Made by a program: the position numbers and the translations under genes. A stretch of DNA of 64,000 nt from a virus: the IMG/VR virus record IMGVR_UViG_3300032070_000613, positions 77,096 through 141,095 of that record; one strand, given 5' to 3'. Below are positions 21,269-63,810 of this stretch, piece by piece. How positions within the stretch are numbered: position 1 is the first letter of the stretch; every line of letters starts with the position of its first letter. Below the pieces are notes generated by a model that saw only the letters and a program-made list of their open reading frames with translations, had not been told where the DNA came from and searched no databases.

Positions 21269-22969
21269 ATGAATATAGATCCTCGTCATATTAAGCAAAT
21301 ATCAGATACTAAGGCAACATTATCTGGTGCTGGTCCAAAAAGATTAAAAAAGAAGCAGATCGCTATTCAAGAAGATCTCTCTGCTAAAAGATTGTCTTTC
21401 AGAACATCTCTGAATGAATATGTCGAATGCGCAAATGTAGCTGATGCCACAGGCATTACCGGTCCTGCTGGTATACCAGGACCTACAGGGCCCTCAGCGG
21501 GTCCTCAGGGAGATACAGGATTACCAGGTCCTACGGGTATAGCAGGGACTTATGGGTTAACAGGATTGCCAGGGATACAGGGGCCTACAGGAGCTTTTGG
21601 TGGTGCTCCTGGAGAGACAGGATTGCTTGGGGCTACTGGCGTCCGCGGCATGACAGGTATTAACGGTCTTATAGGCAGTACTGGATCGCAAGGTTTAACG
21701 GGTGCGTCTGGTGTGACAGGTATTTCTGGAGTGACTGGTGATCAAGGAAATACGGGCGTCCAAGGTTTAACTGGTTCTCAAGGAGCTACTGGAGTATCTG
21801 GCGTTACAGGATTGTTTGGTGTGACTGGAGATCAGGGGAATACAGGAGTACAGGGTGCGACTGGTGTAGGTCTGCAAGGAGTCACAGGAATTGGTGTCAC
21901 AGGTCTCAGTGGGGTAACCGGCTCTCGAGGAGAGACGGGATCTCAGGGTCTCACCGGATTGATTGGAATCACAGGGCTCGAAGGGAGTACGGGTGTCCAG
22001 GGAATAACTGGTGAACCTGGTTTGACCGGTATGCCTGGAATCACTGGTCAACAAGGCGCACAAGGGCTCACAGGTATCATAGGGATTACAGGAGCTCTTG
22101 GGACTACAGGTTTTGTAGGAATTACAGGTTTTCAGGGAATAACAGGTCTGCAAGGATCCCAAGGGATAACTGGAGAACAGGGTGCTACAGGAGCTCTTGG
22201 GACTACAGGTTATATAGGAATCACGGGTCAACAGGGAGCTCAGGGGCTCACAGGTGTTATTGGGCTGACCGGATCTCAAGGCATTACGGGAGAGCCTGGT
22301 CTAACAGGAATTTTAGGCATTACAGGGATTGTTGGAGTTCAAGGTTTAACGGGAGATCAGGGATCTCAAGGATTGACTGGTACTATTGGATTAACAGGAA
22401 CTATTGGAATTACAGGACAGCAGGGAGTATTTGGATTAACGGGATATGCTGGTATCACAGGTCCTGAGGGAGCTGGTGGTAATACGGGAGCACAGGGAGT
22501 AACTGGGAATCAAGGAGAAACAGGAGCTGGAATTCAAGGATCGACGGGATTGCGGGGATCAACCGGGATGTCTGGTATTGGTAGTGCAGGAGGCGTCACA
22601 GGAATGATCAATATCACATTCAACGGTAATAGCAATCCTGTGTCTACAGGCGAAAAAACCATAATAAATCTACCGTTTAATTTACAGCTGGATGGCTGGA
22701 GATTTCTAGCGAATGCGACAGGGAGTATTTCTGTTGATATGGCCATCTCTAGCTATACTAATTATCCTTTTACAGGGCCTCTTATGCATGCCGGTTCTAC
22801 AGGTCCTTATATATCTGCTGGAATAAAAAATGAAGATACAGATCTGAGTGATTGGGTTAATGCAACGGGAGCGGCAGGAGAACTAATCAGAGTTAGTGTA
22901 GGATCCGTGACAGGGATTTCTATGGCATATCTTTCTTTAAATTATCATCAACTCTATAATGTCATTTAA
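21269..22969 (+). CDS. Collagen-like (Gly-X-Y, GxT-rich) fibre protein
   Basis: About 380 residues of Gly-X-Y triplets rich in GxT/GxQ, followed by a globular C-terminal domain. Confidence 0.85.
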   Translation: MNIDPRHIKQISDTKATLSGAGPKRLKKKQIAIQEDLSAKRLSFRTSLNEYVECANVADATGITGPAGIPGPTGPSAGPQGDTGLPGPTGIAGTYGLTGLPGIQGPTGAFGGAPGETGLLGATGVRGMTGINGLIGSTGSQGLTGASGVTGISGVTGDQGNTGVQGLTGSQGATGVSGVTGLFGVTGDQGNTGVQGATGVGLQGVTGIGVTGLSGVTGSRGETGSQGLTGLIGITGLEGSTGVQGITGEPGLTGMPGITGQQGAQGLTGIIGITGALGTTGFVGITGFQGITGLQGSQGITGEQGATGALGTTGYIGITGQQGAQGLTGVIGLTGSQGITGEPGLTGILGITGIVGVQGLTGDQGSQGLTGTIGLTGTIGITGQQGVFGLTGYAGITGPEGAGGNTGAQGVTGNQGETGAGIQGSTGLRGSTGMSGIGSAGGVTGMINITFNGNSNPVSTGEKTIINLPFNLQLDGWRFLANATGSISVDMAISSYTNYPFTGPLMHAGSTGPYISAGIKNEDTDLSDWVNATGAAGELIRVSVGSVTGISMAYLSLNYHQLYNVI

Positions 22970-23190
22970 AAATGACGTTGTGGGAGTCTAGGGAGCTTAT
23001 TCAATAAAATGAATATGCAGACGTTACAACCAAAGTTCAAGAACGTACCTACGGATGCTTCACTAGTCCGTAGCTCTACAACTCTACCATTAAACAGGAA
23101 CGAAAGCGCCAGTGTGGTAGAGAAAGTACTGAGTTGTAACAATCCCGAAGTGAATCTACGGAAACAGGTATCCGGACTTACAGTCATTGT
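22948..23190 (+). ncRNA. omegaRNA scaffold (copy 1), boundaries approximate
   Basis: Structured ~240 nt region directly upstream of the PLMP codons (CTACGGATGCTTCACTAGTCCGTAG hairpin, TAAACAG...CAGTG, AACAATCCCGAAG), conserved in three copies. Confidence 0.8.
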
Positions 23191-24367
23191 ACCTGTACTC
23201 TCTTTGGAGGGGAGTCCTCTAATGCCGTGCACTCCAGTTAAAGCACGGCACCTTTTAGAAAAAAGGAGAGCCCATGTCGTAAAACTAAATCCTTTTATTA
23301 TTAGATTGAATTTCAAGTGTGAAAGCATAGTTCAGGAAATCAGTTTCGGAATGGATGCCGGATACAAAAATATTGGATATTCAGCGATTACAGATACAAA
23401 AGAAATTTTATCAGGTGAAATAGCTCTGGATAATAAAACTAAAAGCAGAATGAACGAAAGAAAAATGTATAGAAGAAATAGAAGGTATCGTCTGAGGTAT
23501 AGAAAACCAAGATTCGATAATAGGGTAAAACCCGAGGGATGGCTCCCTCCCTCTATAAAGAGAAAATTTGATACCCATATAAATTTCATAAAAGGGCTCA
23601 AAAAAATGTTACCTATCAAAAAGGTCACAGTTGAGATAGGAAATTTTGATATTCAAAAGATAGAGAATCCCGATATCTCTGGAGTCCAGTATCAGCAGGG
23701 TGATTTATACGGGTATTATAATTTGAAACTCTATCTTTTGGAGAGGGAAAAAGGAAAGTGTCAACTCTGCGGGAAAAAATTCACTAAAGAAAATAAACCC
23801 CACATGCACCATATAAAACAAAGGAGTGAGGGTGGTACTAGTAGAGCTGAGGGTATCGCTCTTATACATAAAAGTTGTCATGAAGATTTGCATAAGAAAA
23901 AATTATTTCATAAATTGAAACCAGCTAAAGCTTATAAAGCAGAAACTTTTATGTCTATAGTTGGAGGGATGTTCAAGAAATTTTTAGATTGTGATGTTAC
24001 TTACGGATATGAGACGTGTGCTAAAAGAAAAGAGTTAGGTTTAGAGAAATCTCATGTGAATGATGCCTTTGTTATAGCCGGAGGGACTATTCAAACTAGA
24101 TGCCTACCTAGTATGATAGAGCAAAAGAGAATTAATAACAGGACTCTGCAGACGAATAGAAAAGGTTTTTCTTCTTCTATTAGGAAACAGAGGCATAAAA
24201 TACAAAATAGAGATTTTATTTGGATTAGTGGTAAAAAATATTTGAGTGGAGGCGTGGCTAGTAGAGGGACTCAGGTATATTATTTTGATGGGAGTGAGAA
24301 GAAACTCATCCCTTCTAAAAAGATTGAAAAAATTTATAATACTGATAATTTGATTTGGCTAGATTAA
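23009..24367 (+). CDS. iscB: RNA-guided endonuclease IscB
   Basis: PLMP motif, RuvC-I GMDAG, RRxRR bridge helix (RRNRRYRLRYRKPRFDNR), WLPPS, RuvC-II VEIGNFD, CxxC-HH HNH region, RuvC-III SHVNDA. Confidence 0.93.
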   Translation: MNMQTLQPKFKNVPTDASLVRSSTTLPLNRNESASVVEKVLSCNNPEVNLRKQVSGLTVIVPVLSLEGSPLMPCTPVKARHLLEKRRAHVVKLNPFIIRLNFKCESIVQEISFGMDAGYKNIGYSAITDTKEILSGEIALDNKTKSRMNERKMYRRNRRYRLRYRKPRFDNRVKPEGWLPPSIKRKFDTHINFIKGLKKMLPIKKVTVEIGNFDIQKIENPDISGVQYQQGDLYGYYNLKLYLLEREKGKCQLCGKKFTKENKPHMHHIKQRSEGGTSRAEGIALIHKSCHEDLHKKKLFHKLKPAKAYKAETFMSIVGGMFKKFLDCDVTYGYETCAKRKELGLEKSHVNDAFVIAGGTIQTRCLPSMIEQKRINNRTLQTNRKGFSSSIRKQRHKIQNRDFIWISGKKYLSGGVASRGTQVYYFDGSEKKLIPSKKIEKIYNTDNLIWLD

Positions 24368-24392
24368 ATGTCGTTATAGAGTTAAAAACAAT

Positions 24393-47369: not shown

Positions 47370-48532
47370 CCGATGAAATAGACATCAGTGACATCCTGGA
47401 AGATGAGGTGGAGGAGAGTCCCGCTCAATCCCAAGTGACTCCGGCTATCCCCGACTCTCCAGACAGCCCCGCCCGGAAAGAAATAGCGCAGCTGAGAGAT
47501 CGTCTGAGAGTATCTCACGAGCACTGCCGTGATCTTTTCGTGGATATGAGGACTGTGGACTACATAGCTACTCCCGATGACTCCTATATCGAATTTCTGG
47601 ATAAAAATTATTACGACAAAAGGCTGTATTTTAAAGTGGACCCTCAGAGACCGAATGATCCTAAAATCATAATAGCCCAGCAGCAATTTTGCAAGCTGCT
47701 AGGTATCCCCTATAAATTTTTTGCCGCTAACAGGCCCTCCCTGAAAATGAACATCGTGAAGACCTGGCAGGCAGGCCTGACCGCGGATGAGAGTAAAGCC
47801 CAGAGCGTCCTCAAAATTCGGGAGTCTAAAGATTGCTCTATCATCAGAGCATTCATACCAGTAACTAAATGCTGCGTACCTCTCTATGAACTCATAGACA
47901 TAATCCTGAATGGCGTGACTATCCCTCTCACAATGGAGTTCGTGTACGGGGATGAAAGGGATGATTTGATATTACACGCCCGTTTTCTTTTTAACAAAGA
48001 ATATACGGTACTGGGATCTAAGGTGTGCGTGGGATTTTCTTTGATAGCGTCTGAGCTGGATGCCTCCCCATTCATAATAGAAATCTTTTTACATGATAAA
48101 GAGTTTGCAACTTCGTATATTAGTACATATGGCGGGGACCCCTTTTTCAAGTCTAAATATGACGGTATCAAAGCGGATCAAATTAAAGATCTGATCCCTA
48201 AAATGTTAAACAGAATCGATAGTGAAGCTCCCGAAATGATAGAAAGGGTAGAGAAGAAAGTATCCGATACTATGCAGAGCGGATTTTTTTGTGCGGAAAC
48301 TGAGTGCGTATCGCTACTGAAAGCTAAGGGTATCAACGGCAAAGTGAAAAAAGCGGTATATCATCAGATTACTGAGTGCCAGGATAAAATCAAAACTCCC
48401 TGGGATATTGCTCGTCACGTGGGTCTGGTGGCTAAAGATTTAGATTCGATAAAGAGGCTCGCTGTAGAGCGGGCTATAGGTCAATATTTGCGACTAACTT
48501 TTTCTAACCCTACAACGTCATATAAAAAATGA
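47366..48532 (+). CDS. Hypothetical protein (DUF932-like); last 8 residues supplied by the IscB element
   Basis: QQFCKLLGIPYKF motif; C-terminal NPTTSYKK is encoded inside the element's left end. Confidence 0.5.
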   Translation: MTDEIDISDILEDEVEESPAQSQVTPAIPDSPDSPARKEIAQLRDRLRVSHEHCRDLFVDMRTVDYIATPDDSYIEFLDKNYYDKRLYFKVDPQRPNDPKIIIAQQQFCKLLGIPYKFFAANRPSLKMNIVKTWQAGLTADESKAQSVLKIRESKDCSIIRAFIPVTKCCVPLYELIDIILNGVTIPLTMEFVYGDERDDLILHARFLFNKEYTVLGSKVCVGFSLIASELDASPFIIEIFLHDKEFATSYISTYGGDPFFKSKYDGIKADQIKDLIPKMLNRIDSEAPEMIERVEKKVSDTMQSGFFCAETECVSLLKAKGINGKVKKAVYHQITECQDKIKTPWDIARHVGLVAKDLDSIKRLAVERAIGQYLRLTFSNPTTSYKK

Positions 48533-48750
48533 CGATGTAGGAGTCTAGGGAGCTTATTCAGTAACATGAATATGCAGACGTTACAACCAAAGTTCAAGAA
48601 CGTACCTACGGATGCTTCACTAGTCTGTAGCTCTACAACTCTACCATTAAACAGGAACGAAAGCGCCAGTGTGGTAGAGAAAGTACTGAGTTGTAACAAT
48701 CCCGAAGTGAATCTTCACTGGAAACGGGTATCCGGACTTAAAGTCATTGT
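48504..48750 (+). ncRNA. omegaRNA scaffold (copy 2), boundaries approximate
   Basis: Near-identical to the 22948-23190 scaffold; directly upstream of PLMP. Confidence 0.8.
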
Positions 48751-49927
48751 ACCCGTACTCTCTTTAAAAAGGAGTCCTTTAATGCCTTGCGGTTTGATCA
48801 AAGCTCGTCACTTAATTAAAGGAGGTAAAGCAAAAGTAGTTAAACTGAACCCACTAGTCATTCAGCTTAAATTTGACTGTGAAAACCAGATCCAAGATGT
48901 TTCTTTAGGTATTGATTCAGGCTATAAAACTATTGGATTCTCGGCTGTTTCTGAAATAAGAGAAGTTAGCGCTGGTGAGCTGAATCTAGATAATGGAACA
49001 TCAAAAAAGTTAATAGAAAAGAAAATGTATCGAAGGCATAGAAGAAACAGGCTGAGATACAGAAAACCAAGATTTAATAACAGAAAAAAATCTTCTGGGT
49101 GGCTTCCTCCTTCTATTCAGAGAAAATTTGATACGCACCTCAATCTGATAAAAAAGATAAAAGCTATAGTACCGGTTAAGAAGCTAACCATAGAGATAGG
49201 GGAATTTGATATTCAAAAGATAATGAACCCTGAGATTTCAGGCAAAAAATATCAGCAAGGTAATTTATTTGGGTATAATAATATGAGGTCTTTTTTGATA
49301 GCTCGTGAGAAAGGGAAATGTCAGTTATGTGGAAAAAAGTTCAGTAGAGATGATCCCTCTCATATGCATCATATAAAACCAAGGATTATGGGAGGTACTG
49401 ATAGACCCGATGATTTAGCTTTGGTACATAAAAGCTGTCATGATAAGATTCACAAGGAAAAACTTTTTAACAAACTCAAAAAAGCCAAGGAGTATAAAGC
49501 TGAGACTTTTATGGCTATTGTAGGGGCTAAATTTAAAAAAGTTTTGGATTGTGATATTACATATGGGTATGAGACTAAGACTAAAAGAGATTTATTGGAG
49601 ATAGATAAAAGCCATATCAATGATGCATTTGTAATAGCTGGTGGATCTACGCAGAAAAGATGCAAGCCTTATAAAATAGAACAGAAAAGGATCAACAACC
49701 GGACTCTGCAGACTAATAGGAAAGGTTTTTCAAAATCTATTAGGAAACAGAGGCATAAAATACAAAACAGGGATTTCATTTGGATTGATAGTAAAAAATA
49801 TTTGAGCGGGGGCGTGGCTTGTAGAGGGACTCAGGTATATTATTTTGATGCGAATGAGAAGAGGCTTATATCTTCAAAAAAGATAGAAAAAGTTTATCAT
49901 ACAGGGAGTTTAGTGTGGCTAAATTAA
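48566..49927 (+). CDS. iscB: RNA-guided endonuclease IscB
   Basis: PLMP, LGIDSG, RRHRRNRLRYRKPRFNNR, WLPPS, IEIGEFD, CQLC..HH, SHINDA. Confidence 0.93.
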   Translation: MNMQTLQPKFKNVPTDASLVCSSTTLPLNRNESASVVEKVLSCNNPEVNLHWKRVSGLKVIVPVLSLKRSPLMPCGLIKARHLIKGGKAKVVKLNPLVIQLKFDCENQIQDVSLGIDSGYKTIGFSAVSEIREVSAGELNLDNGTSKKLIEKKMYRRHRRNRLRYRKPRFNNRKKSSGWLPPSIQRKFDTHLNLIKKIKAIVPVKKLTIEIGEFDIQKIMNPEISGKKYQQGNLFGYNNMRSFLIAREKGKCQLCGKKFSRDDPSHMHHIKPRIMGGTDRPDDLALVHKSCHDKIHKEKLFNKLKKAKEYKAETFMAIVGAKFKKVLDCDITYGYETKTKRDLLEIDKSHINDAFVIAGGSTQKRCKPYKIEQKRINNRTLQTNRKGFSKSIRKQRHKIQNRDFIWIDSKKYLSGGVACRGTQVYYFDANEKRLISSKKIEKVYHTGSLVWLN

Positions 49928-50001
49928 ATGACGTTGTAGAGCTAAAAAAAATTGAAGAAATTTTTGATGCTATTATCCTCAAACACATAATAAATGATAT
50001 T

Positions 50002-50632: not shown

Positions 50633-52618
50633 ATGAGCATCTCAGTTGAATTACAGAAGAAATTGGATCAGCTGGATAGGTATGATGATGCCTACTATAA
50701 TAAAGAAGTCATCATCTCTGATGATGGCTATGATCTATTTAAGGAGAGTGTCCTCAAACAGCTCCCACCAGACCATCCTCGTCTGGATAAAATAGGGCAC
50801 GCTCCCAGTAGCGCGTGGCCTAAGGTAAAACATTTCATTTTCATGGGGTCCCAGAATAAAGTAGATACTGAGGACAAAATACGGGACTACGTGAAAAAGA
50901 GTCTCCTGGCTCTCGGGATGAAAAAAGCTCGGTACGTGCTACAGCATAAAATCGATGGATTTTCTCTCGCTATACGATATAAAAATAAAAAACTGGATAT
51001 GGCACTCACACGTGGAAAAGGCATCTACGGAGAAAACATCAAACCTAATGCCCTGCTATTCAGGAACCTCCCCAATGTCATACCAGTAGATAAAAAAGAA
51101 GTCCAGTGCCGCGGGGAAGGTGTGCTGTTTAAAGAAGATGTCCCTACTATCCAGAAAGCCAGGATCAAAGAGGGTGAAAAACCGTTTAAAAACCTCCGCA
51201 ATGCCGCTAGCGGTATCAGCAGAAAATTTGACGGGGCCCTCAGCAAATATATCCATTTTATACCCTATGATATCAATGCCACAGTAAAAACCGAGACGGA
51301 GAAAATAAAAGTCCTGAAGCAGATGGGTTTTTCGCCGGTGACTACCTATACCTGCGAAGATGTGGATGAGATCATCGCTATCTATAAAAAAATAAAGGAA
51401 AAAGAAAGAAATACCTATCCATATGAGATCGACGGTCTGGTCCTCAAATTTGATGAGATAGAGCTACAGGAAAAATTAGGGATAGAGCATCAGAAACCGG
51501 TCGGTCAGATAGCCCTGAAATTTGAGTCTGAAAAAGCTCTCACGACGATCGAAAGTATCTTGCTGCAGGTAGGACGTACTGGAGTGATCACACCGGTGGC
51601 TATTTTGGAGCCGGTAGACCTCATGGGGTCTACTATCACGAAAGCGTCCCTGCATAACATAGGACGTGTCATAGAGGATAGTATAGGAGAGGGCGCAGAA
51701 GTTACCATTTGTAAACGCGGAGATATAATCCCTCAGGTAGATGAAGTCCTCAATATAGGGGACATTTATGAAAAACCTACTAAATGTCCGTCCTGTGGGG
51801 GGCCCCTCGTAGATGATAGCGTGAATATGTGGTGTCGCAATAAAATATGCAAAGAGAGGGATATCAACCGTATCGTCTACTGGATTGAGACCCTCGACAT
51901 GAAAGGATTCTCAGGAAAATTTGTAGAGAAGCTATGGGATCTCGGTAAGCTGAGGAAAATATCCGATCTCTATAAGCTCAAAGAGGATGATTTTCTGGCT
52001 GTGGAGGGTATAGGTGAGAAAACGATTAAAAGTTTTTTCAGTATATTGGAAGAGTCCTCCGAGATATATTTAGATATTCTTATAACTGGCCTAGGGATCG
52101 AATCCTGTTCCAAGTCGACCGCGGCGGTCCTCGTAGAGAATTTTGGTACCTGGGATAAGATAGCCTCAATAAAACCTGCTGATCTAGAGCGTCTGCCGGG
52201 CTTTGCAGAGACCTCCTCCGCCACGATATGTCAGGGGATAGCTGAGGCCTCAGACATGGCTACAGAGCTCCTGAAGGTCATCAGGATCAAAAAGAAGAAG
52301 GCGGGGCCGCTGACGGGTATGTCGTTCTGTGTAACGGGATCTTTATCGTCCATGGGACGCAAGGAATTTTATGATCTCGTGGTGGAGAAAGGTGGGATAG
52401 CGAAGAATTCAGTGTCGGAGGGGCTGTCGTATCTCGTGTCGAATGAGGACCCGAACTCCGGTAAGGGTCTGAAGGCTAAGAAATACGGGGTAAAGATCAT
52501 CAACGAGGATCAGTTTTTTAAGATCCTGGGAGAGAAACCGGTGGCGAATAAATCTGAAGATAAAAGTGAAAATAAAAAAGAGAGTATCCAGATAGTGTCT
52601 GAAAACCTTTTTGAGTAA
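50633..52618 (+). CDS. ligA: NAD-dependent DNA ligase
   Basis: KIDG adenylation motif, TRGKG, RGE, RNAASG, DGLVLK, QVGRTG, GDIIP, C4 Zn finger, HhH, BRCT (FCVTGSL). Confidence 0.95.
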   Translation: MSISVELQKKLDQLDRYDDAYYNKEVIISDDGYDLFKESVLKQLPPDHPRLDKIGHAPSSAWPKVKHFIFMGSQNKVDTEDKIRDYVKKSLLALGMKKARYVLQHKIDGFSLAIRYKNKKLDMALTRGKGIYGENIKPNALLFRNLPNVIPVDKKEVQCRGEGVLFKEDVPTIQKARIKEGEKPFKNLRNAASGISRKFDGALSKYIHFIPYDINATVKTETEKIKVLKQMGFSPVTTYTCEDVDEIIAIYKKIKEKERNTYPYEIDGLVLKFDEIELQEKLGIEHQKPVGQIALKFESEKALTTIESILLQVGRTGVITPVAILEPVDLMGSTITKASLHNIGRVIEDSIGEGAEVTICKRGDIIPQVDEVLNIGDIYEKPTKCPSCGGPLVDDSVNMWCRNKICKERDINRIVYWIETLDMKGFSGKFVEKLWDLGKLRKISDLYKLKEDDFLAVEGIGEKTIKSFFSILEESSEIYLDILITGLGIESCSKSTAAVLVENFGTWDKIASIKPADLERLPGFAETSSATICQGIAEASDMATELLKVIRIKKKKAGPLTGMSFCVTGSLSSMGRKEFYDLVVEKGGIAKNSVSEGLSYLVSNEDPNSGKGLKAKKYGVKIINEDQFFKILGEKPVANKSEDKSENKKESIQIVSENLFE

Positions 52619-52635
52619 AATAGATAGGAATTTTT

Positions 52636-53538
52636 ATGCTACTAAAAGATTTAGTGATCTCTCCGTGTAATGCTAGAGACAGTAAGGCTGAGGATGATGG
52701 TATCGAGGCTCTCAAGCAATCGATAAAAGAGCATTCTTTGATCAGCAAAATTATATTGAGGCCTGGTAAGGGCAGTAAGTTTGAGATAGTGGCGGGGCAG
52801 CGTCGGTATAAAGCTCTTCTGGAGTTGTTAGGGGAGGATAAGGAGCTGCCAGAGGAGGACTATATTTTGATAAAAGATTTGGATGATGAGAAGGCGTATA
52901 TCCTCTCTATAACTGAGAATCAGATGCGTCGGGATCTCTCCCCCATGGATCTCAATAAAATTATTCTCAAGCTGAATGGTTTTGGGTACAAAGAAAAGGA
53001 AATCGCCAAGATCCTGAATGTGACGCCACACCGATTGAAGAGGCTGTCGACGCTGGCGCAGGATGAGCGTAGGATGCCGGAGGCGGCTAAAGTGGAGCTT
53101 CATAAGCCTATTGAGGAGTCAAAACTAAACGATGGTCACTGGCAAAAGATACGGGATGTCGAAAATGAGGATGTGATAAAGGATGTCGTGGATTATGTCA
53201 TTGATAAGGAGTCTCCTCCTCGGGATGTGCCTACCATCATAAAAGCTATTGAGAAGCAGTATAATGAAGAGAACCCTCCGTTGGGGGATGAGACTACTGC
53301 GAAAAAAGGTACTGAGGAGTCTGCTGAGCCCTCGGCGGATGGGCCTATTGAGTATGCTCATAAAGGTGAATTGAAGCTGGAGCTGCATGGGGATGAGCGG
53401 GTGCTCAAAGTGATGGGGAAAGGGACTGAGAATGAGTCTGAGGAGGTGCCTGTAGCGCATTATATGGAGTATCTCCAGCATCCGGAGAAATTCAGGTGTT
53501 TTGTGACTTTTAAACTCAAGGTGAAGCCTGTGGATTAA
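52636..53538 (+). CDS. ParB/Srx-like protein with HTH
   Basis: LKQSIKEHSLI...FEIVAGQRRYKA...ENQMRRDLSP; EIAKILNV. Confidence 0.8.
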   Translation: MLLKDLVISPCNARDSKAEDDGIEALKQSIKEHSLISKIILRPGKGSKFEIVAGQRRYKALLELLGEDKELPEEDYILIKDLDDEKAYILSITENQMRRDLSPMDLNKIILKLNGFGYKEKEIAKILNVTPHRLKRLSTLAQDERRMPEAAKVELHKPIEESKLNDGHWQKIRDVENEDVIKDVVDYVIDKESPPRDVPTIIKAIEKQYNEENPPLGDETTAKKGTEESAEPSADGPIEYAHKGELKLELHGDERVLKVMGKGTENESEEVPVAHYMEYLQHPEKFRCFVTFKLKVKPVD

Positions 53539-54904: not shown

Positions 54905-55324
54905 ATGAAAATACAAAATTCATATGTGGCGGAGGATGATTTTATTTCGGCTTTCGATGAACTTTTGAAGAAAGACATGCCCGCCAAACAGTGCCTGGAA
55001 ATGATAAAAAGCGAAGAGATCCTCATAAGCCATTTCAATAATTTAAAAAGGACTCAGAGGACTATCGTCGAAAAATATGCCAAGAAAAAAGATAATGGGG
55101 AGATAGTGCTCGACGATAAAAATAACATAGTGTTTAAAAGCAAATCCGATGAAGAAAAATGTAAAAAAGAGATAAGTGAAATACGTGAGGAGTTTATCGA
55201 AATCCCTCTGACGAATAAAGTAAAAATTTATGAAGATGATATTTTCACCGCTCGCAAACTGGTCCTTTTAAAAGAAATTGTGGATGTGATAAAAAGAGAT
55301 ACGCCGGAAGAACCAAAAAAATAA
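54905..55324 (+). CDS. Hypothetical protein (possible fibre chaperone)
   Basis: Helical, charged, IVEKYAKK.DNGE motif; follows the fibre gene. Confidence 0.45.
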   Translation: MKIQNSYVAEDDFISAFDELLKKDMPAKQCLEMIKSEEILISHFNNLKRTQRTIVEKYAKKKDNGEIVLDDKNNIVFKSKSDEEKCKKEISEIREEFIEIPLTNKVKIYEDDIFTARKLVLLKEIVDVIKRDTPEEPKK

Positions 55325-55327
55325 ATC

Positions 55328-55356
55328 TTGACTTTGTTCTGCGATCGTTATATATT
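55328..55356 (+). promoter_or_regulatory. Sigma70-type promoter
   Basis: TTGACT-17 nt-TATATT. Confidence 0.7.
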
Positions 55357-55478
55357 GATTGGTAGATAAGATTTAAAATCCGAACATGCAGGATAAAGCG
55401 CATGTACAGGCGGGCCGCTGTTTTCGAGATGCCCAAGACCGATGACCGTGACACGTCATCACTTCATAGGAGTAACCT

Positions 55479-56531
55479 ATGTCTACGCAAGACAATGCCT
55501 CTGCAATTGCCCCCAGTGTCGATGTCTCTCAGATCCAGCCCTCATCAGGAAACAGTGTCTACCTCAGCAAAGACGGCGCGATCTCGTCTATTGGCGAGCG
55601 TGTGAAAAAGGCCTCGGAGTTCACGGGTGTAACAGAGAAAGATCTTTTTGAATGTCTCAAAAAGATCGGTATCGATGACACTCCCCAGGGCCTGCAGATG
55701 TTGGATTCGGATATCGCATCCGCAGATGTCCTGGAGAAAGAGATCACAGTATTTTCTCTGATCCCTACCCTGAAACGTAAAGCCGCGGTTGCTATTCTGA
55801 AAGGAACAGACCCCTTTAAAAAAGACCCGCCTGAGAAGAAACCCTCAATGCCGGTAGTATCTGTGGAAGGAAATGCTCTGTCTGAGGTTGTAAAAGCTCT
55901 CCGTGATATCTATAAAATGAAAGATAAAGAATTATTGGAGCTTTACAATAAGGAACGAGATCAGTTGGATGTTGAACAGGAATTAGACCGTAGAGTAAAG
56001 CATCAGCCTTTTATAATTTTACGAGGCGATAAATGCGAGCTTGGTAAAGAAACGCCAGATCTAGATATTGAAGCTAGCTTGGATCAACTTCGACGAGCAC
56101 GCCGCGGCTATACTGTCCCGTCAATGGTGCCGATAGGTGAAAACAAAGTTGCACGCGTGTATCGTATTACTGAGCTCAATCCTGATGACCGCATAGTAGA
56201 GATGTGCCCTATCTGTGGAGAGATCCTCTATAAGGGATACTGTCCTAAATGTGAACTTGATTTCTCCGGTGTCGATGATGATTCGAGGGCCTATGTGAAG
56301 CTGGTGGTAAATTGCGAGAAATTCGACGTTAAGTGTCACTCTGACCGCAAAGCCGTCCATGCGAGTGCGTCAAAAAACCTGGCGAATTTGAGGACTACGT
56401 GGCCTTCAATATCTCCTACGTTTGACGACCTCAAAGCAACGAATAGCCTGCCGAAACTGCGGATGATAAAAAATATGCCCGCGGTGCAGGTAGCAGATCC
56501 GTTTCATGTGAGCGGTAATAGAAATTTCTAA
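55479..56531 (+). CDS. Hypothetical protein with Zn ribbon
   Basis: AGGAG RBS; CPICG...YCPKC. Confidence 0.65.
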   Translation: MSTQDNASAIAPSVDVSQIQPSSGNSVYLSKDGAISSIGERVKKASEFTGVTEKDLFECLKKIGIDDTPQGLQMLDSDIASADVLEKEITVFSLIPTLKRKAAVAILKGTDPFKKDPPEKKPSMPVVSVEGNALSEVVKALRDIYKMKDKELLELYNKERDQLDVEQELDRRVKHQPFIILRGDKCELGKETPDLDIEASLDQLRRARRGYTVPSMVPIGENKVARVYRITELNPDDRIVEMCPICGEILYKGYCPKCELDFSGVDDDSRAYVKLVVNCEKFDVKCHSDRKAVHASASKNLANLRTTWPSISPTFDDLKATNSLPKLRMIKNMPAVQVADPFHVSGNRNF

Positions 56532-56542
56532 TTTTAACAATA

Positions 56543-56575
56543 GGGAGCTCCTTTTTGTAGGAGCTCCTCTTTTTT
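56543..56575 (+). terminator. Intrinsic terminator
   Basis: GGAGCTCCT/AGGAGCTCC stem followed by a T-tract. Confidence 0.7.
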
Positions 56576-56589
56576 AGAAAGGATTTTTT

Positions 56590-57675
56590 ATGCGGTCAGA
56601 AACTATAATGGAACACAAAGGCTATAAAGCTCGGATCATGGAAGCGGAAAGGCTGACGGGGGATCATGTACATGGATTACCTCCGGGTACTCCTCTGCCT
56701 GCATATCCCTCAGATATGTTTCTCAATTTCCCGAAAAACTGGATAAAAAATTCTTACGTAGTACCAGTCAGACCTAACAAAGGTCTCTGGTTCGATTGGA
56801 CTTTTTGTGATGCTGCTAATACTGCGATATTACCTACAGTGAAAGGATGTAATCCTATTACGGGCATGCAGACATCTGGGTTTCATCTGGAACGATATGA
56901 TGCAAAATGTCCAAAGCACGGCTGTGATTTTATGGCAGACCGATATTGCCCAGAGTGCGATTACAGATGGCCTTTTGGCAACTACGTTGCTTCACCTAAC
57001 ACTCTCTGGTGGGACGGTTTCGCAAATGTCAAGGACGGTACCGTGCGTCAGTTCTTTTTTACAGAAGAAGAAATGCGTGACATAGCCACGCGACTCATAG
57101 GAAAAGATCAAACAGTACCTGCATTTGGTTTCGCATTTTACAGGCCTAAAGAATTACGGCAACCCCAGGTCTCTTTGTATCGAGGGATTTTTAAATCATT
57201 TCCTATAAATGATGACTCGGATATTGACTCAGATTCTACAATATATTGTGATAGCGTATTGAATGAAAATTATACTTCAGGAACTCTGAGTATTCAGAAT
57301 GCACCGGGAGATCCGACTTCCAGCGTGTATTTATGTGCTACACCCTCTGCGGGAGCGCCGGTTAAAAGCGCATGTTATGCAGCATCGACAGATCACACAG
57401 AAGTTAAGGGAGTCGCTTCGTTAAAACATCTGCAGACTAGACGGTATAGGAGTTTTTCCGATACTGTGAAGGAAGTGTCCGTCGGAGCAGGGGCAAAAAT
57501 TTCACAAAATTTAATACCAGATCCATATGGGCTGGATACCTGGTGTGATACCCCGGCAGCAGTCATGACAATTTATTTCGTGTTTCAGGAGAAACTCGAG
57601 GAGCTGATAGCCGGAGGAGTCCGCGATCTAGAGGGAAAACCAGAGGGGATGCTCGCCGGGCTGCCGGTCGGATAA
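56590..57675 (+). CDS. Uncharacterised conserved protein with inserted Zn ribbon
   Basis: LWFDW, WWDGF...GTVRQF, GAGAKISQ.L.PDPY motifs; CPKH...CPEC. Confidence 0.6.
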   Translation: MRSETIMEHKGYKARIMEAERLTGDHVHGLPPGTPLPAYPSDMFLNFPKNWIKNSYVVPVRPNKGLWFDWTFCDAANTAILPTVKGCNPITGMQTSGFHLERYDAKCPKHGCDFMADRYCPECDYRWPFGNYVASPNTLWWDGFANVKDGTVRQFFFTEEEMRDIATRLIGKDQTVPAFGFAFYRPKELRQPQVSLYRGIFKSFPINDDSDIDSDSTIYCDSVLNENYTSGTLSIQNAPGDPTSSVYLCATPSAGAPVKSACYAASTDHTEVKGVASLKHLQTRRYRSFSDTVKEVSVGAGAKISQNLIPDPYGLDTWCDTPAAVMTIYFVFQEKLEELIAGGVRDLEGKPEGMLAGLPVG

Positions 57676-57761
57676 TTTTTTTCATAATATCCTGTTTATT
57701 TTTTTGGTCCTGTGTATATTATATGCATGGGACCTTTTTTATTTTGAAAGGGGGTCCTTTT

Positions 57762-58058
57762 ATGAATGCCTTAGAAATGAATTTATGCTATGATCGTATA
57801 GAGCTGATAAATCGTGAGCAGCGCAGACAGATTGAAATACATAAGTGGATCCAGTCAGAAAAGTCGGGCTATGATCTCAAAGACGAGGCTACCCTCGAAT
57901 GGATAGAGAAATACGCACCTCTTTTCAGAAAATGGGCGGAGTCCCTACCCTATACCTGTATGCATTGCGGGGCCTGTAAAGGTCCTAATGCTGCGGGTAT
58001 GTGCCCTACTCCATTCGATCAGAAACGCATAGATTTTATTGAGAAAGATAAAAATTGA
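57762..58058 (+). CDS. Small protein, DUF4032 C-terminal-like, with Cys cluster
   Basis: IEIHKWIQSEKSGYDL...EWIEKYA; CxxCxxC...C; GAAAGGGGG RBS before ATG 57762. Confidence 0.5.
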   Translation: MNALEMNLCYDRIELINREQRRQIEIHKWIQSEKSGYDLKDEATLEWIEKYAPLFRKWAESLPYTCMHCGACKGPNAAGMCPTPFDQKRIDFIEKDKN

Positions 58059-58111
58059 TATTCTTTTAATATAAAATTTCTTTTAATATGTATTAAACGA
58101 AAGGATTGTAT

Positions 58112-58537
58112 ATGCAGAGAGTAATAGTATATCTCGGTAAAATAGCAACTGCTCTAGAGCAGAAAGGTAGGACTGACTATGCGGACTATATCAATCAGGT
58201 GTCTGCTTCTTTAGATGTAGATGCCTCGTTGGATAAATCCGCTCAGGAGCTGGTCGCCGCGGAGGAAATCTATATCCAGGAAGCGGTGGATGCATGTGAT
58301 GATGCTAATCGTGACATCACGGCAGCGACGCAGATTATAGAGGCCGCTCGGAAAAGGAAGAAGAAATGGGTGCAGAAAATAGATCTTAAAAAAGGTCGTT
58401 TTACTTCATATTGCAAAGCTCAAGGATTTAAAGGTCCTTGTCAGGCATGTGCTGAAAAAGCCCTGGCTTCCCCGGATAAGTCTGTTAGGGGTATGGCGGG
58501 ATTCTACAAAGCTACCAAAAAGTTTAAGAAGAAATAA
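58112..58537 (+). CDS. Hypothetical protein with basic C-terminus
   Basis: AAGGA RBS; KKKWVQK..KKGRFTSYC. Confidence 0.55.
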   Translation: MQRVIVYLGKIATALEQKGRTDYADYINQVSASLDVDASLDKSAQELVAAEEIYIQEAVDACDDANRDITAATQIIEAARKRKKKWVQKIDLKKGRFTSYCKAQGFKGPCQACAEKALASPDKSVRGMAGFYKATKKFKKK

Positions 58538-58632
58538 TAACAAGAATACAGGATAGGGTAGCTCCCGAAAGGAGGCTCTCCAGGCCTCTTTCCTGTACAC
58601 TCTAACTGGAGAAACGTATACTGGAGGTACGT

Positions 58633-59580
58633 ATGAAGAAGAGATCTGATTTTAACGATTTAACAGGAAAAGTTTTTGGTGATCTTACTGTAGTATCTTT
58701 GGCGTTCACAAAAAATAGAGTTTCTCACTGGAACTGTTTGTGTAAATGTGGTAGAAATAGGATAGTAAGATCTAGGTATTTAACACAGGGTATTCACACT
58801 TCTTGTGTAGTATGCTCAAAAATTAAAAATGTCGGGCATCACTATGTGGATCTGACTGGGAAACGCTTTCACCGGTTAATAGTTCAGCATATATCCCATT
58901 ATGACTTATTAAAAAGGACATACTATTGGAAATGTCTGTGCGATTGTGGTAAAGAAGTAATTATTATTGGTAATAGTTTAAAAACGAATAGAACAAAGTC
59001 GTGTGGGTGCCTTGTTTCCGAGAAAGCTAAGAATAGACTTTTTACAAATCTTATAGGAAAGCGCTTCGGTAGATTGTTTGTTATTGGTCATGATGGTATG
59101 AAAAAAACTTTTAGATATTGGGAGTGTGTTTGTGATTGTGGAAATAAGACAAAAGTAAAAGCAAGGGATTTAAGGTCAGGGCATACACAGTCTTGTGGGT
59201 GTTTAAGAAAAGAAAGATCTTCAGAAGGCTGTAGAAATAGAAGATTACCGGATAACGAAGCTGGCTTTAATAGGGTATATCGGGAATACCGTAACAAAAA
59301 TGCAGAAAGGCGAGATCTGTCGTTTGAGTTAACAAAAGAACAGTTTAGAGAATTGACTCAAAAGCCCTGTCACTATTGTGGTTTTATGCATTCAAAAAAC
59401 CAGTTAGGTTTTTTATATAATGGTTTAGATAGAGTAGACAATAAAAAAGGTTATACAATAGATAACGTAGTTCCTTGCTGCTTTACCTGTAACATATCAA
59501 AAGCTCGTATGACAGTAGAAGAATTCTTATCTTGGATAGATCGAGTGCACGTGTATCAGAGCCAAAAACAGAACAAATAG
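58633..59580 (+). CDS. HNH (homing-type) endonuclease with three N-terminal Cys-rich repeats
   Basis: Three (D/N)LxGKxFxxL.V...WxCxCxCG...SC repeats; CHYCG...NGLDRVDNKKGYTIDNVVPCCFTCN. Confidence 0.8.
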   Translation: MKKRSDFNDLTGKVFGDLTVVSLAFTKNRVSHWNCLCKCGRNRIVRSRYLTQGIHTSCVVCSKIKNVGHHYVDLTGKRFHRLIVQHISHYDLLKRTYYWKCLCDCGKEVIIIGNSLKTNRTKSCGCLVSEKAKNRLFTNLIGKRFGRLFVIGHDGMKKTFRYWECVCDCGNKTKVKARDLRSGHTQSCGCLRKERSSEGCRNRRLPDNEAGFNRVYREYRNKNAERRDLSFELTKEQFRELTQKPCHYCGFMHSKNQLGFLYNGLDRVDNKKGYTIDNVVPCCFTCNISKARMTVEEFLSWIDRVHVYQSQKQNK

Positions 59581-59585
59581 CTATT

Positions 59586-60128
59586 TCATTTGACTGACCG
59601 ACATCCATAGATACATTCTGCCTGGTTCGTCAGCTCCAATATTATATCTTTAGCTTTATTCTCTTCTTCCCACTGACTAGAAGCTACGTTGTAGAAGAAA
59701 AAATGTAGGCGATATGTTTTAATGCTCGGGCATCCTCTGCCCTGGATATAGCTCTCGACACCGACCTGTATATTGTCTTTTCCCATGGCGTCTTTAGTCC
59801 TGAATACACTATAGCTAACATTGTAGATATATATAACGTCAGTTTTCTTGCTAGGGACAACATCTACGCAGAATAGTGGGTATAGCGTGATAGGTATGAT
59901 TTTAAAAACATATGTAGAGCCTACATGATCTCTGTTATAAACAAATTGCTGCTTTTTATACATTTTGATGAGGGTGTCTATTATCGGACGAAATTTAGTT
60001 TCATCATATGTTTTCTGGGTATCGTTGGAGAGCTCAGATTTAATCGTAGTTTTAGATAGTATGGGGGCAGACTGGGCGCAGGCATTGATGGATAGCATCA
60101 ATATCATTAAAATAGCTGTTTTTAACAT
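59586..60128 (-). CDS. Secreted/lipoprotein-like hypothetical protein
   Basis: N-terminal MLKTAILMILMLSINAC; GGGGA RBS on the minus strand; the only convincing minus-strand gene. Confidence 0.6.
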   Translation of the reverse strand: MLKTAILMILMLSINACAQSAPILSKTTIKSELSNDTQKTYDETKFRPIIDTLIKMYKKQQFVYNRDHVGSTYVFKIIPITLYPLFCVDVVPSKKTDVIYIYNVSYSVFRTKDAMGKDNIQVGVESYIQGRGCPSIKTYRLHFFFYNVASSQWEEENKAKDIILELTNQAECIYGCRSVK

Positions 60129-60261
60129 AGGATCCCCCTTTCTATATCATGGATTTTCCTATAAATAGATTATCATTTTTATGCGTCAAAAAGATATTTA
60201 ATATAGATCGTCAAATTTTACTGCTAAAAATAATAATATTTTTGATAAATAAAGAAAAAAC

Positions 60262-60290
60262 TTGACATTTATTTGAAAATGTCGTATATT
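60262..60290 (+). promoter_or_regulatory. Sigma70-type promoter driving the ncRNA cluster
   Basis: TTGACA-17 nt-TATATT with an A/T-rich upstream element. Confidence 0.8.
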
Positions 60291-60295
60291 AGAGT

Positions 60296-60307
60296 AGCTC
60301 TTTGAAA
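60296..60307 (+). promoter_or_regulatory. boxA-like antitermination site
   Basis: AGCTCTTTGAAA matches rrn-type boxA (GYTCTTTRAMA) just after the predicted TSS; a second copy GTTCTTTGATAA lies at 60917-60928. Confidence 0.55.
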
Positions 60308-60331
60308 TAGTTATTTTAGTAAGCACAAGCA

Positions 60332-60593
60332 GTAACCCTACAACGTCACTTAATAAATGACGCTGTGGGAGTCTAGGGAGCTTATTCAGTAAAATGAATA
60401 TGCAGACGTTACAACCAGAGTTCAAGAACGTACCTACGGATGCTTCACTAGTCCGTAGCTCTACAAATCTCTCTTTAAACAGACTGGAAACGGTCAGTGA
60501 GAGAGGTATAGTACTGGGCTGTAACAATCCCGAAGTGAATCTACGGAAACAGGTATCCGGACTTATAGTCACTGTACCTGTATATGAGTCCTT
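60332..60593 (+). ncRNA. Orphan omegaRNA (no IscB ORF)
   Basis: Homologous to the other two scaffolds; homology stops just before the PLMP codons; no right end. Confidence 0.8.
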
Positions 60594-60623
60594 ATTTTAA
60601 AATAAAGATTCATTTTAAAATTT

Positions 60624-60737
60624 GATAGTCTAATCTTTTATCGTAATGTGCCTACATCAGGCACACACCCCATGAGCCTTAGTTTAAAGCCGGGTTCATG
60701 GGGGTGTGCCGCACCTTAAAGCACACACAACTCGGAT
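60624..60737 (+). ncRNA. Y-RNA-like unit 1 (box A 60633-60657, long hairpin 60660-60710, box B 60719-60737)
   Basis: Shared box A/box B scaffold; ~19 bp GC-rich hairpin cargo. Confidence 0.6.
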
Positions 60738-61414: not shown

Positions 61415-61450
61415 AAGCCGAGGAAGTTTAGCAGCTCTCTCGGCTTTTTT
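61415..61450 (+). terminator. Intrinsic terminator of the ncRNA cluster
   Basis: AAGCCGAG...CTCGGCTT stem plus T-tract. Confidence 0.7.
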
Positions 61451-61456
61451 ATTTGC

Positions 61457-61485
61457 TTGATAAGTTTATTATAAAAAAGTATATT
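61457..61485 (+). promoter_or_regulatory. Sigma70-type promoter (probably leaderless mRNA starting near ATG 61492)
   Basis: TTGATA-17 nt-TATATT, 6 nt before the ATG. Confidence 0.55.
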
Positions 61486-62223: not shown

Positions 62224-63810
62224 ATGGCTACCGCTACTCAGAAAAATACAGCCGCTCCGGAAAAAGAAGAAGACCTGCGGGTAAAAATCCTCAACACCTT
62301 CATGACGTGTGACCACCGAAATACCGAAATGTCAATGAAAGTGCACCAAGAGGTCCAGACGAAGGATCCCCTGTTCTATGCGCACCTCGCATGCTGGTAC
62401 CGTAAGAACGGCGAACTCCGAGATGTCAATGAGGTATTCTCGGCGCTGCTCAGTGTGGATCCATATCTCCCTAACCGTGAGGTAGGCCTGGCGCTTTTCC
62501 GGGAGCAGGCCCCATTCATGAAACGGCGCATCCTGGGTTTCATTAAGGGCAAGAAAGTCAAAGTCCGTGAGAAGACTGGTAAAAAAATCAAAATCGGTAA
62601 GAAGACCGTGGATGAAGTCAAAATCACCGAGAAAAAGGTAGGTCTCGATAAATCCCTGCCGACTGCGTTCAAGACGGAGGTCACGCGATATCTACGCTGG
62701 CTGGAGTCCAATACGGAGAAGTTTGATACGGTCGCTATCCGTAATGCTAAAGATCTAAAGGCACTCTATGCCTCTAACGGTCTGCAGATCAAACCATCGC
62801 CGCGGGCGCAGGCTATCCTATTCGATAAGGAGTATCCGAAAGATAGTAAGCTGAATATTTTCGAGAAAATCAGCACAGCAAAAACTCCCGAAGAAGCTGC
62901 GAAGCTCATTGTGGAGAACAAAGTCCCGTATACCGTCGCTGTGGGTTTGGTGGAAAAAATCACTCCATCTATCCTGGTGGCGCTCATCGATGCTATGAGT
63001 CCTCAGGAGTTGATCAACAATGTCGCCTCTCTGGAAGAAAAGGGAGCGATGGACAATCCGGACGTCAAAAAGCTGATCCAGGCTAAACTGGGGAAAGCTG
63101 AGAAATCCAAAACAGTCGCCACTTTGAAATCCAAAACAGCGAAAGCTACTGGTCGTATCAAGGATGAAGAAGTCCTCAAGCAGCTTGATAAGGTAGCTGA
63201 TGAGCAGGTCAAAAAGAGTGGTACTATTAAAGTCCCTACTGCGATCTTTATTGATCAGTCTGGTTCTATGGATAAAGCGATCGATGTAGGTAAGCGGTGT
63301 GCGGCGCTGGTGTCTGGTGTCACTACCGCCGATCTACATGTAGTTTGTTTTAATACGGCGGCTACCCCGATCACGTCTACGGAGAAGACTCTGACTGGTT
63401 GGGAGAGGGCGTTTGCGCCTATTCATGCCAATGGGGGTACGTCTATTGGGTGTGCCCTGGATTATCTGATGCGGCGTGGGCATGCGGTGGAGCAGCTCGT
63501 GGTTATTACGGATGAGCTAGAGAATAGCGCTCCGTTTTTCACAGATGTTTTTGCTAAGTATAAGGAGCAGGCCAAAGCCACTCCGCACGTTGTGATCATC
63601 AATGTCAGTGCGACGGCGCATAGCTATAGTGATCAGATTCTTCATGAGAGTTTGGATAAAGCGAAGATTACATATGATGTATATAAGCCCGCGAATTCAG
63701 ATTATTACGGGCTGCCGGGTTTAGTGACGTTACTATCTCGTAAGTCCAAACTGGATCTTGTGTATGAAATTCTGGATACGCCTTTGCTGGTCCGGAGGGA
63801 TTTTCGATAG
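62224..63810 (+). CDS. Ro60/TROVE-like RNA-binding protein with C-terminal vWA (MIDAS) domain
   Basis: N-terminal DPLFYAHLACWYRKNGELRD (TROVE-like), helical basic middle, IDQSGSM / GGTSIG / VITDELEN MIDAS motifs; GGAGG RBS. Confidence 0.75.
   Translation: MATATQKNTAAPEKEEDLRVKILNTFMTCDHRNTEMSMKVHQEVQTKDPLFYAHLACWYRKNGELRDVNEVFSALLSVDPYLPNREVGLALFREQAPFMKRRILGFIKGKKVKVREKTGKKIKIGKKTVDEVKITEKKVGLDKSLPTAFKTEVTRYLRWLESNTEKFDTVAIRNAKDLKALYASNGLQIKPSPRAQAILFDKEYPKDSKLNIFEKISTAKTPEEAAKLIVENKVPYTVAVGLVEKITPSILVALIDAMSPQELINNVASLEEKGAMDNPDVKKLIQAKLGKAEKSKTVATLKSKTAKATGRIKDEEVLKQLDKVADEQVKKSGTIKVPTAIFIDQSGSMDKAIDVGKRCAALVSGVTTADLHVVCFNTAATPITSTEKTLTGWERAFAPIHANGGTSIGCALDYLMRRGHAVEQLVVITDELENSAPFFTDVFAKYKEQAKATPHVVIINVSATAHSYSDQILHESLDKAKITYDVYKPANSDYYGLPGLVTLLSRKSKLDLVYEILDTPLLVRRDFR

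Follow-up and report, generated by a model that had tools for sequence, protein, structure and literature searches.

A solo omegaRNA from an IscB element heads a Ro60-linked RNA operon in a sediment phage: a probable insertion remnant with possible use in trans

The closest described relatives of the RNA considered here are the HEARO/IscB omegaRNAs (RF02033), such as those of OgeuIscB and GstIscB, which contain a pseudoknot, a long stem, and covarying hairpins and carry the guide 5′ of the scaffold at the end of the element. In these relatives the iscB gene follows the omegaRNA, and in most of them the P1 stem is branched. Meers et al. located the HEARO upstream of iscB at the right end of the transposon and remarked that RF02033 lacks the 3′ elements (PMC10055086). 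According to the same work, protein-less PATE-like elements encode omegaRNAs that need to be used in trans (PMC10055086). Such PATE-like elements (Meers et al. 2023) are mini-transposons derived from IS200/IS605 that carry a guide-RNA gene without a nuclease and keep both ends, their cognate nucleases being encoded elsewhere in the genome and their guide being set by the flank.

Free-standing homing endonucleases of T-even phages cut the insertion-less allele in a co-infecting relative. Viral solitary CRISPR-repeat units are said to act as RNA anti-CRISPRs, that is, as promoter-driven phage guide scaffolds without an effector gene that mimic the scaffold of a host defence effector. Stand-alone omegaRNAs with guides of their own have reportedly been described as well. 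A nuclease-less omegaRNA is an already known kind; what makes the present one interesting is its setting in a Ro60-linked RNA operon with CRISPR-repeat mimics.

The window analyzed here comprises the last 64 kb of a 141-kb IMG/VR record that is estimated to be about 30% complete. Its source is a very large sediment phage, and the public DNA runs containing the window stretch are sediment and freshwater-sediment metagenomes; no RNA run was listed among the public runs with this stretch. Nearly all genes of the window are on the + strand. The Rfam search of the window gave three RF02033 (HEARO) matches above the gathering score, at 22974-23159, 48492-48717, and 60359-60544, and a search of the whole 141-kb record returned the same three and no more. 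The top-scoring copy was the third (90.2 bits against a cut-off of 83, model positions 1-211, E 5.5e-17). In contrast to its RF02033 relatives, this copy, the orphan, has no IscB-like ORF on its 3′ side and neither overlaps nor precedes an iscB ORF. The features of the orphan and its surroundings are as follows:

60262-60290, + strand: sigma-70-type promoter with TTGACA (60262-60267), a 17-nt spacer, and TATATT (60285-60290); predicted start at about 60296-60298
60297-60335, + strand: leader of 39 nt; the putative guide is formed by its last 16-20 nt (60316-60335), which also flanked the proposed former insertion on the left
60336-60594, + strand: HEARO-type scaffold of the orphan omegaRNA, from Rfam, alignment, fold, and covariation
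60336-60349: 5′ arm of the scaffold P1 hairpin, doubling as the left inverted repeat of the element
60467-60507: variable hairpin of the scaffold, which further contains a pseudoknot and a long stem
60549-60555 / 60575-60581: 3′ hairpin of the scaffold
60559-60563 / 60587-60591: crossing pair GGACT / AGTCC of the scaffold
60535-60600, + strand: iscB frame stub of 21 codons from an in-frame GTG to TAA (60598-60600), breaking at PLMP
60595-60632, + strand: AT-rich spacer between the orphan and the first Y-RNA-like unit, lacking a right inverted repeat and a strong terminator
61416-61451, + strand: likely terminator of the RNA operon, a hairpin with a T-run, read directly, its loop exceeding the limit of the terminator scanner

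In the alignment with the two IscB-linked copies, homology was unbroken from 60336 to 60582. The 14-nt Shine-Dalgarno hairpin of the linked copies is reduced to 3 nt in the orphan (60583-60585), and homology picks up again at 60586 and ends at about 60594, on the S-P-L codons preceding the M-P of PLMP. The initial annotation had described a complete protein-less omegaRNA behind a predicted promoter, with a scaffold stopping at the PLMP boundary. The first part was borne out by the full-model Rfam match, the unbroken alignment, and the 21-codon frame stub, and the second by the end of homology on S-P-L, where the iscB frame is cut.

The orphan scaffold is 87-88% identical to those of the two linked copies (BLAST), the differences lying mostly within one hairpin. 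Of 86 columns without variation in 11 IscB-linked scaffolds, it retains 84; the two departures are position 60519 and the first column of the 14-nt deletion. The change at 60519 is specific to the orphan and creates an A-C mismatch in the long stem, breaking an otherwise invariant A-U pair. RNAalifold applied to 12 scaffolds yielded 49 consensus pairs, 28 of them with compensatory changes, and the orphan keeps the covariation-supported pairs except at this A-C. Its MFE fold matches the family architecture (z = -4.7), with the pseudoknot, long stem, and covarying hairpins of the RF02033 omegaRNAs and the guide in the same 5′ position. The RNA reaches 3′ beyond the Rfam model, as Meers et al. 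remark for RF02033 (PMC10055086), and its P1 is a simple long hairpin that is also an inverted repeat, whereas P1 is branched in most HEARO relatives.

The two other copies belong to complete IscB elements, whose proteins are candidate trans partners of the orphan:

22952-24381, + strand: IscB element 1, omegaRNA and IscB1, inverted repeats at 22952-22965 and 24368-24381; candidate trans partner
48508-49941, + strand: IscB element 2, omegaRNA and IscB2, inverted repeats at 48508-48521 and 49928-49941; candidate trans partner

IscB1 and IscB2, nucleases of the type ancestral to Cas9, are 381 aa each as annotated from ATG, contain RRXRR and HNH domains, and are 67% identical to each other, with TbaIscB and OgeuIscB as the nearest solved relatives. 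The claim of two IscBs in the same genome stands, with the RuvC-I GxDxG, RuvC-II E, HNH histidine, and RuvC-III HxxDA motifs intact in both. The reading frames are conserved 5′ of the ATG (...V-L-S-L-E-G-S-P-L ahead of M-P; windows 23150-23224 and 48566-48784). When the frames were extended upstream, the Pfam RRXRR match reached profile position 1 and gained about 14-15 bits. Consequently, translation starts at least 11 codons 5′ of the annotated ATG, within the omegaRNA. Candidates for the true start are an in-frame GTG at 23150 and a non-canonical codon near 23186; the proteins as called from ATG lack 11 residues or more.

The element boundaries could be read from a metagenome contig, L019, which also holds the orphan junction and represents a variant strain (65 SNPs over 5820 aligned bases). 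Its IscB-less junction is identical to that of the orphan, and the junction is present in DNA runs from at least three studies. On its reverse strand (433-1857), L019 carries an additional 1.4-kb IscB element, the corresponding site of which is empty in the source phage (52624-52627), between genes ending at 52618 and starting at 52636 (window 52616-52638). The comparison of the occupied and the empty site showed that the element is bounded by the CCCTAC inverted repeat and the right inverted repeat, with a copy of the duplicated ATAG, an ATG-free 4-mer, on either side. With its inverted repeats and 4-bp duplication, the parent element type of the orphan differs from IS200/IS605 elements, which have hairpin ends. 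The guide of the L019 element matches the empty site of the source phage only across a 2-nt AA indel.

The L019 insertion and element 1 both place the start of the scaffold at the CCCTAC/CTCTAT inverted repeat. The TAAC preceding the repeat occurs in copy 2, the orphan, and L006 and is missing in the L019 element and element 1; therefore, 60335 is the last base of the guide and 60336 the first of the scaffold. This moved by four bases the guide end first proposed, which lay at 60331 with the scaffold counted from TAAC. A short leader is indeed present as had been stated, with a length of 39 nt (about 60297-60335) rather than about 35 nt. The strain SNP at 60311 falls outside its final 20 nt. 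In contigs of other copies from runs X4 and X5, the match to the orphan begins at 60333-60336 and stops at 60582. A low-depth contig from run X3 tracks the orphan locus over 59961-60582 and continues with 98 nt unlike the source phage, and at 60502, 60517, and 60519 it has the states typical for IscB-linked copies; it may be a third allele still with iscB or an assembly chimera through the scaffold repeat.

The six bases 3′ of the right inverted repeat fit NWRRNA in all three elements (24382-24387, 49942-49947, and L019), and NWRRNA is the TAM of OgeuIscB (PMC12660989). This fit sits awkwardly with the model of a 4-bp target duplication. If the duplication is real, the base after the target differs in the empty site, so that the flanks fix no TAM. 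The TAM YTAAA proposed in the initial annotation is not supported, since it rests on two copies, the right flank of the third element begins with ATAGGA, and a 4-bp duplication shifts the TAM position.

In the variable hairpin, both strands of the stem 60467-60475 / 60499-60507 are altered relative to copies 1 and 2, and all nine pairs are retained. The compensatory nature of the CTCTC/GAGAG stem is thus real, but the selection on the orphan that had been read from it is not supported, because the same allele is present in the IscB-linked L019 element. The scaffold of that element is a mosaic of an orphan-type stem with two further changes, an orphan-like P1, and a 3′ part resembling element 1, and its IscB is 90% identical to IscB1. 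A contig from run X5 holds another IscB-linked copy with eight differences from the orphan. The occurrence of the orphan-type stem in an IscB-linked element means that the compensatory changes were inherited and are no evidence of selection on the orphan. As judged from sequence, the allele circulates among active elements and evolved outside the orphan, and it supports the fold. The apparent native pairing of an IscB1-type protein with an orphan-type scaffold is the best argument for possible trans use, which keeps the earlier suggestion that the IscBs could use the orphan in trans plausible.

The promoter at 60262 matches 11 of 12 consensus positions and is the top site in the 59.5-62.3 kb region. 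In the 64-kb window, TTGACA-N16-18-TATAWT occurs once, at this site, with 0.15 occurrences expected. The operon headed by the orphan contains only RNA genes over a predicted extent of 1.15 kb, the orphan omegaRNA coming first, followed by tRNA-like Y-RNA-like units and candidate type I-C CRISPR-repeat mimics. No strong terminator lies in 60595-60632, and read-through into the RNA operon is therefore expected. The promoter probably drives the entire predicted operon, and the scaffold would be transcribed as its first segment. Promoters of one class (TTGAYN, 17 nt, TATATT) were seen on the + strand in intergenic positions at 55328-55356, 60262-60290, and 61457-61485.

Although the orphan had been credited with its own promoter, the RNA units of the sister phage L024 each have an upstream promoter of the same type (TTGATC-17-TATATT, at 4115, 4330, and 4782), and the sister loci contain no omegaRNA. 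It is more likely that the 60262 promoter belongs to the Ro60-linked RNA operon, which an IscB element entered. Being in a phage, behind a consensus promoter, and the first unit of a multi-RNA operon, the orphan differs from PATE-like elements. Downstream of the operon lies the gene of a Ro60-like vWA protein (62224-63810), for which 577 homologues were found. Many of these are on contigs of 200-512 kb, and some NCBI homologues are filed under Nanoarchaeia MAGs, probably as mis-binned phage. A host call via the type I-C-like repeat had a single match, in one Bacillota MAG, and was not used.

The locus itself bears traces of an insertion. The left inverted repeat (60336-60349) is present, and no right-end match was found downstream of the orphan, whereas elements 1 and 2 both have one. 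A left repeat without a right repeat marks the orphan as a truncated insertion and not as a PATE-like mini-element. The orphan resembles PATE-like elements in that its guide-RNA gene comes without a nuclease gene, its cognate nucleases are encoded at other loci of the genome, and the flank sets its guide; with its left end alone, however, it is immobile. As a possible 3′ remnant of iscB, a 9-nt stretch shared by 60622-60630 and the end of the L019 iscB gene was considered and rejected as within chance.

No HEARO was found within 6 kb at 11 sister Ro60 loci (56-62% identical, against 74-84% for the closest homologues), while tRNA-like RNA genes upstream of Ro60 were present there. Five whole sister records, four of them 91-100% complete, also contained no HEARO, whereas the same search finds three in the record of the source phage. 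The omegaRNA is thus specific to this lineage and a newcomer to an RNA island that is itself conserved. With 60336-60594 excised, the distance from the -10 box to the first Y-like unit is about 85 nt; in L024, 66-74 nt separate the -10 box from the tRNA-like gene.

These data give good support to an origin by insertion and subsequent deletion. An IscB element with the same type of inverted repeats as elements 1 and 2 would have entered the leader of a pre-existing Ro60-linked RNA operon, directly 3′ of its promoter, and a later loss would have taken the nuclease gene together with the translation-start hairpin and the right end. The deletion that removed iscB cannot be reconstructed, and we counted this against the reading as an insertion remnant. 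No empty-site allele of the operon leader was found in the loci and records searched, and exact searches of viral contigs with the leader and with the 3′ flank gave no match.

The remark in the initial annotation that no target was seen in the window holds, since within the own 141-kb record the 16- or 20-nt guide matches nowhere else with up to 3-5 mismatches. The wider check for guide targets, which it called for in related phages and candidate hosts, gave nothing above chance in sister phages, viral contigs, or prokaryote genomes. Ten sister-phage records, four of them near-complete, had no guide match with two or fewer mismatches, and the exact guide 20-mer was absent from prokaryotes represented by one genome for each of 185,579 species. 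In all fetched loci, guide matches were the orphan's own copies plus chance-level matches in viral contigs. The guide 18-mer had five matches in viral contigs, representing three distinct sequences, where about two are expected by chance according to a rough estimate from collection size. These matches were rejected as targets; they lie in ORFs of unrelated viruses without protein similarity, extend by at most one base, and have neither NWRRNA nor YTAAA next to them.

Strain comparison was likewise considered as a measure of selection. The source strain and L019 show no SNPs in 60312-60724. The SNPs are distributed as a mosaic over 54905-60724, with 53 in 54913-56120, none for 3.6 kb, and 10 in 59748-60311, a pattern that suggests a recent exchange between the strains by recombination. 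Given this clustering and the adjoining 3.6-kb tract free of SNPs, the SNP-free orphan is uninformative on constraint, and a reading of selection from this comparison was rejected. There is no evidence of selection on the orphan, and a tidy promoter-linked orphan need not have been selected.

We consider it slightly more probable than an even chance that the orphan is a solo omegaRNA from an IscB element, an insertion remnant that heads the RNA operon and is co-transcribed with it, with about even prospects of being used in trans. Its intact scaffold and a stem allele native to a protein 90% identical to IscB1 make it probable that IscB1, and perhaps also IscB2, can be loaded with this RNA, both proteins being encoded at other places in the genome. 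Once loaded, it would give the IscBs a third guide of 16-20 nt ending at 60335; whether this happens and matters is, in our estimate, about an even question. Since the insertion flank supplies the guide, the target would be expected to be the uninserted leader allele in close co-infecting relatives. Cutting that leader could shut out a competitor or, as in the homing of transposons or homing endonucleases, lead to the insertion being copied into it, and a host gene would not be expected as the target. Non-restorative homing against co-infecting phages, intronless homing, and marker exclusion have been reviewed (PMC13565253). The proposed outcome is the same as for the free-standing homing endonucleases of T-even phages, except that the specificity would come from an RNA guide supplied apart from the nuclease.

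A rather unlikely alternative is that the orphan is a young fossil of an IscB element, carried in the operon transcript, used by no IscB, and destined to decay. Its lineage-specific occurrence, the loss of the right end and with it of mobility, the broken invariant pair at 60519, the inherited rather than locally evolved stem allele, a guide without a target in any search, and a constraint that cannot be measured from strain SNPs would all suit such an inert remnant. What speaks against inertness is the tidiness of the loss, which removed the ORF and the Shine-Dalgarno hairpin alone and left the whole scaffold including the 3′ hairpin and GGACT/AGTCC, together with the strongest promoter of the window directly upstream and compatible nucleases encoded by the phage; an IscB could hardly ignore an abundant intact omegaRNA. 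We think it very improbable that the over-expressed scaffold is instead a decoy that soaks up the IscBs of invading elements, of co-infecting phages, or of the phage itself and aims at nothing. The operon is shared with candidate CRISPR-repeat decoys, the guide has no target in everything searched, and an IscB element in the sister strain at a site empty here makes IscB attacks plausible, but the idea is drawn from analogy, such a decoy would also disarm the two IscBs of the phage, and a precedent for an anti-OMEGA RNA was neither found in the literature nor is known to us. The orphan does resemble the RNA anti-CRISPRs in being a promoter-driven phage guide scaffold without an effector gene and shares its operon with type I-C repeat mimics; those RNAs, however, mimic the scaffold of a host defence effector, whereas the effector of the orphan, IscB, is the phage's own, and in the present case the likeness is known from sequence only. 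The least probable reading is that of a dedicated trans-guide against a host or unrelated competitor locus, with a guide selected for a target beyond its own insertion site. Stand-alone omegaRNAs with their own guides reportedly exist, the promoter is strong, and the final 20 nt are the same in both strains, yet the exact 20-mer is missing from the genomes of all those prokaryote species, and the viral 18-mer matches are about as frequent as chance predicts, come from unrelated viruses, and lack an NWRRNA or YTAAA flank.

It is doubtful, if somewhat less so than either of the last two readings, that the orphan is a domesticated transposon guide RNA in an RNA-only warfare operon, acting as a phage-exclusion trans-guide or as an anti-IscB decoy; if true, such domestication would be a viral step toward a CRISPR-like split of guide and effector. 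As an insertion remnant heading the RNA operon, the orphan documents IscB elements invading and decaying in huge phages, and together with L019 it shows how strain polymorphism reveals where such elements begin and end. Should the orphan be used in trans, a virus would here, in nature, be re-aiming transposon-derived nucleases by means of a separately expressed guide, which would tie OMEGA elements to competition between phages and to the way in which detached CRISPR guides arose.
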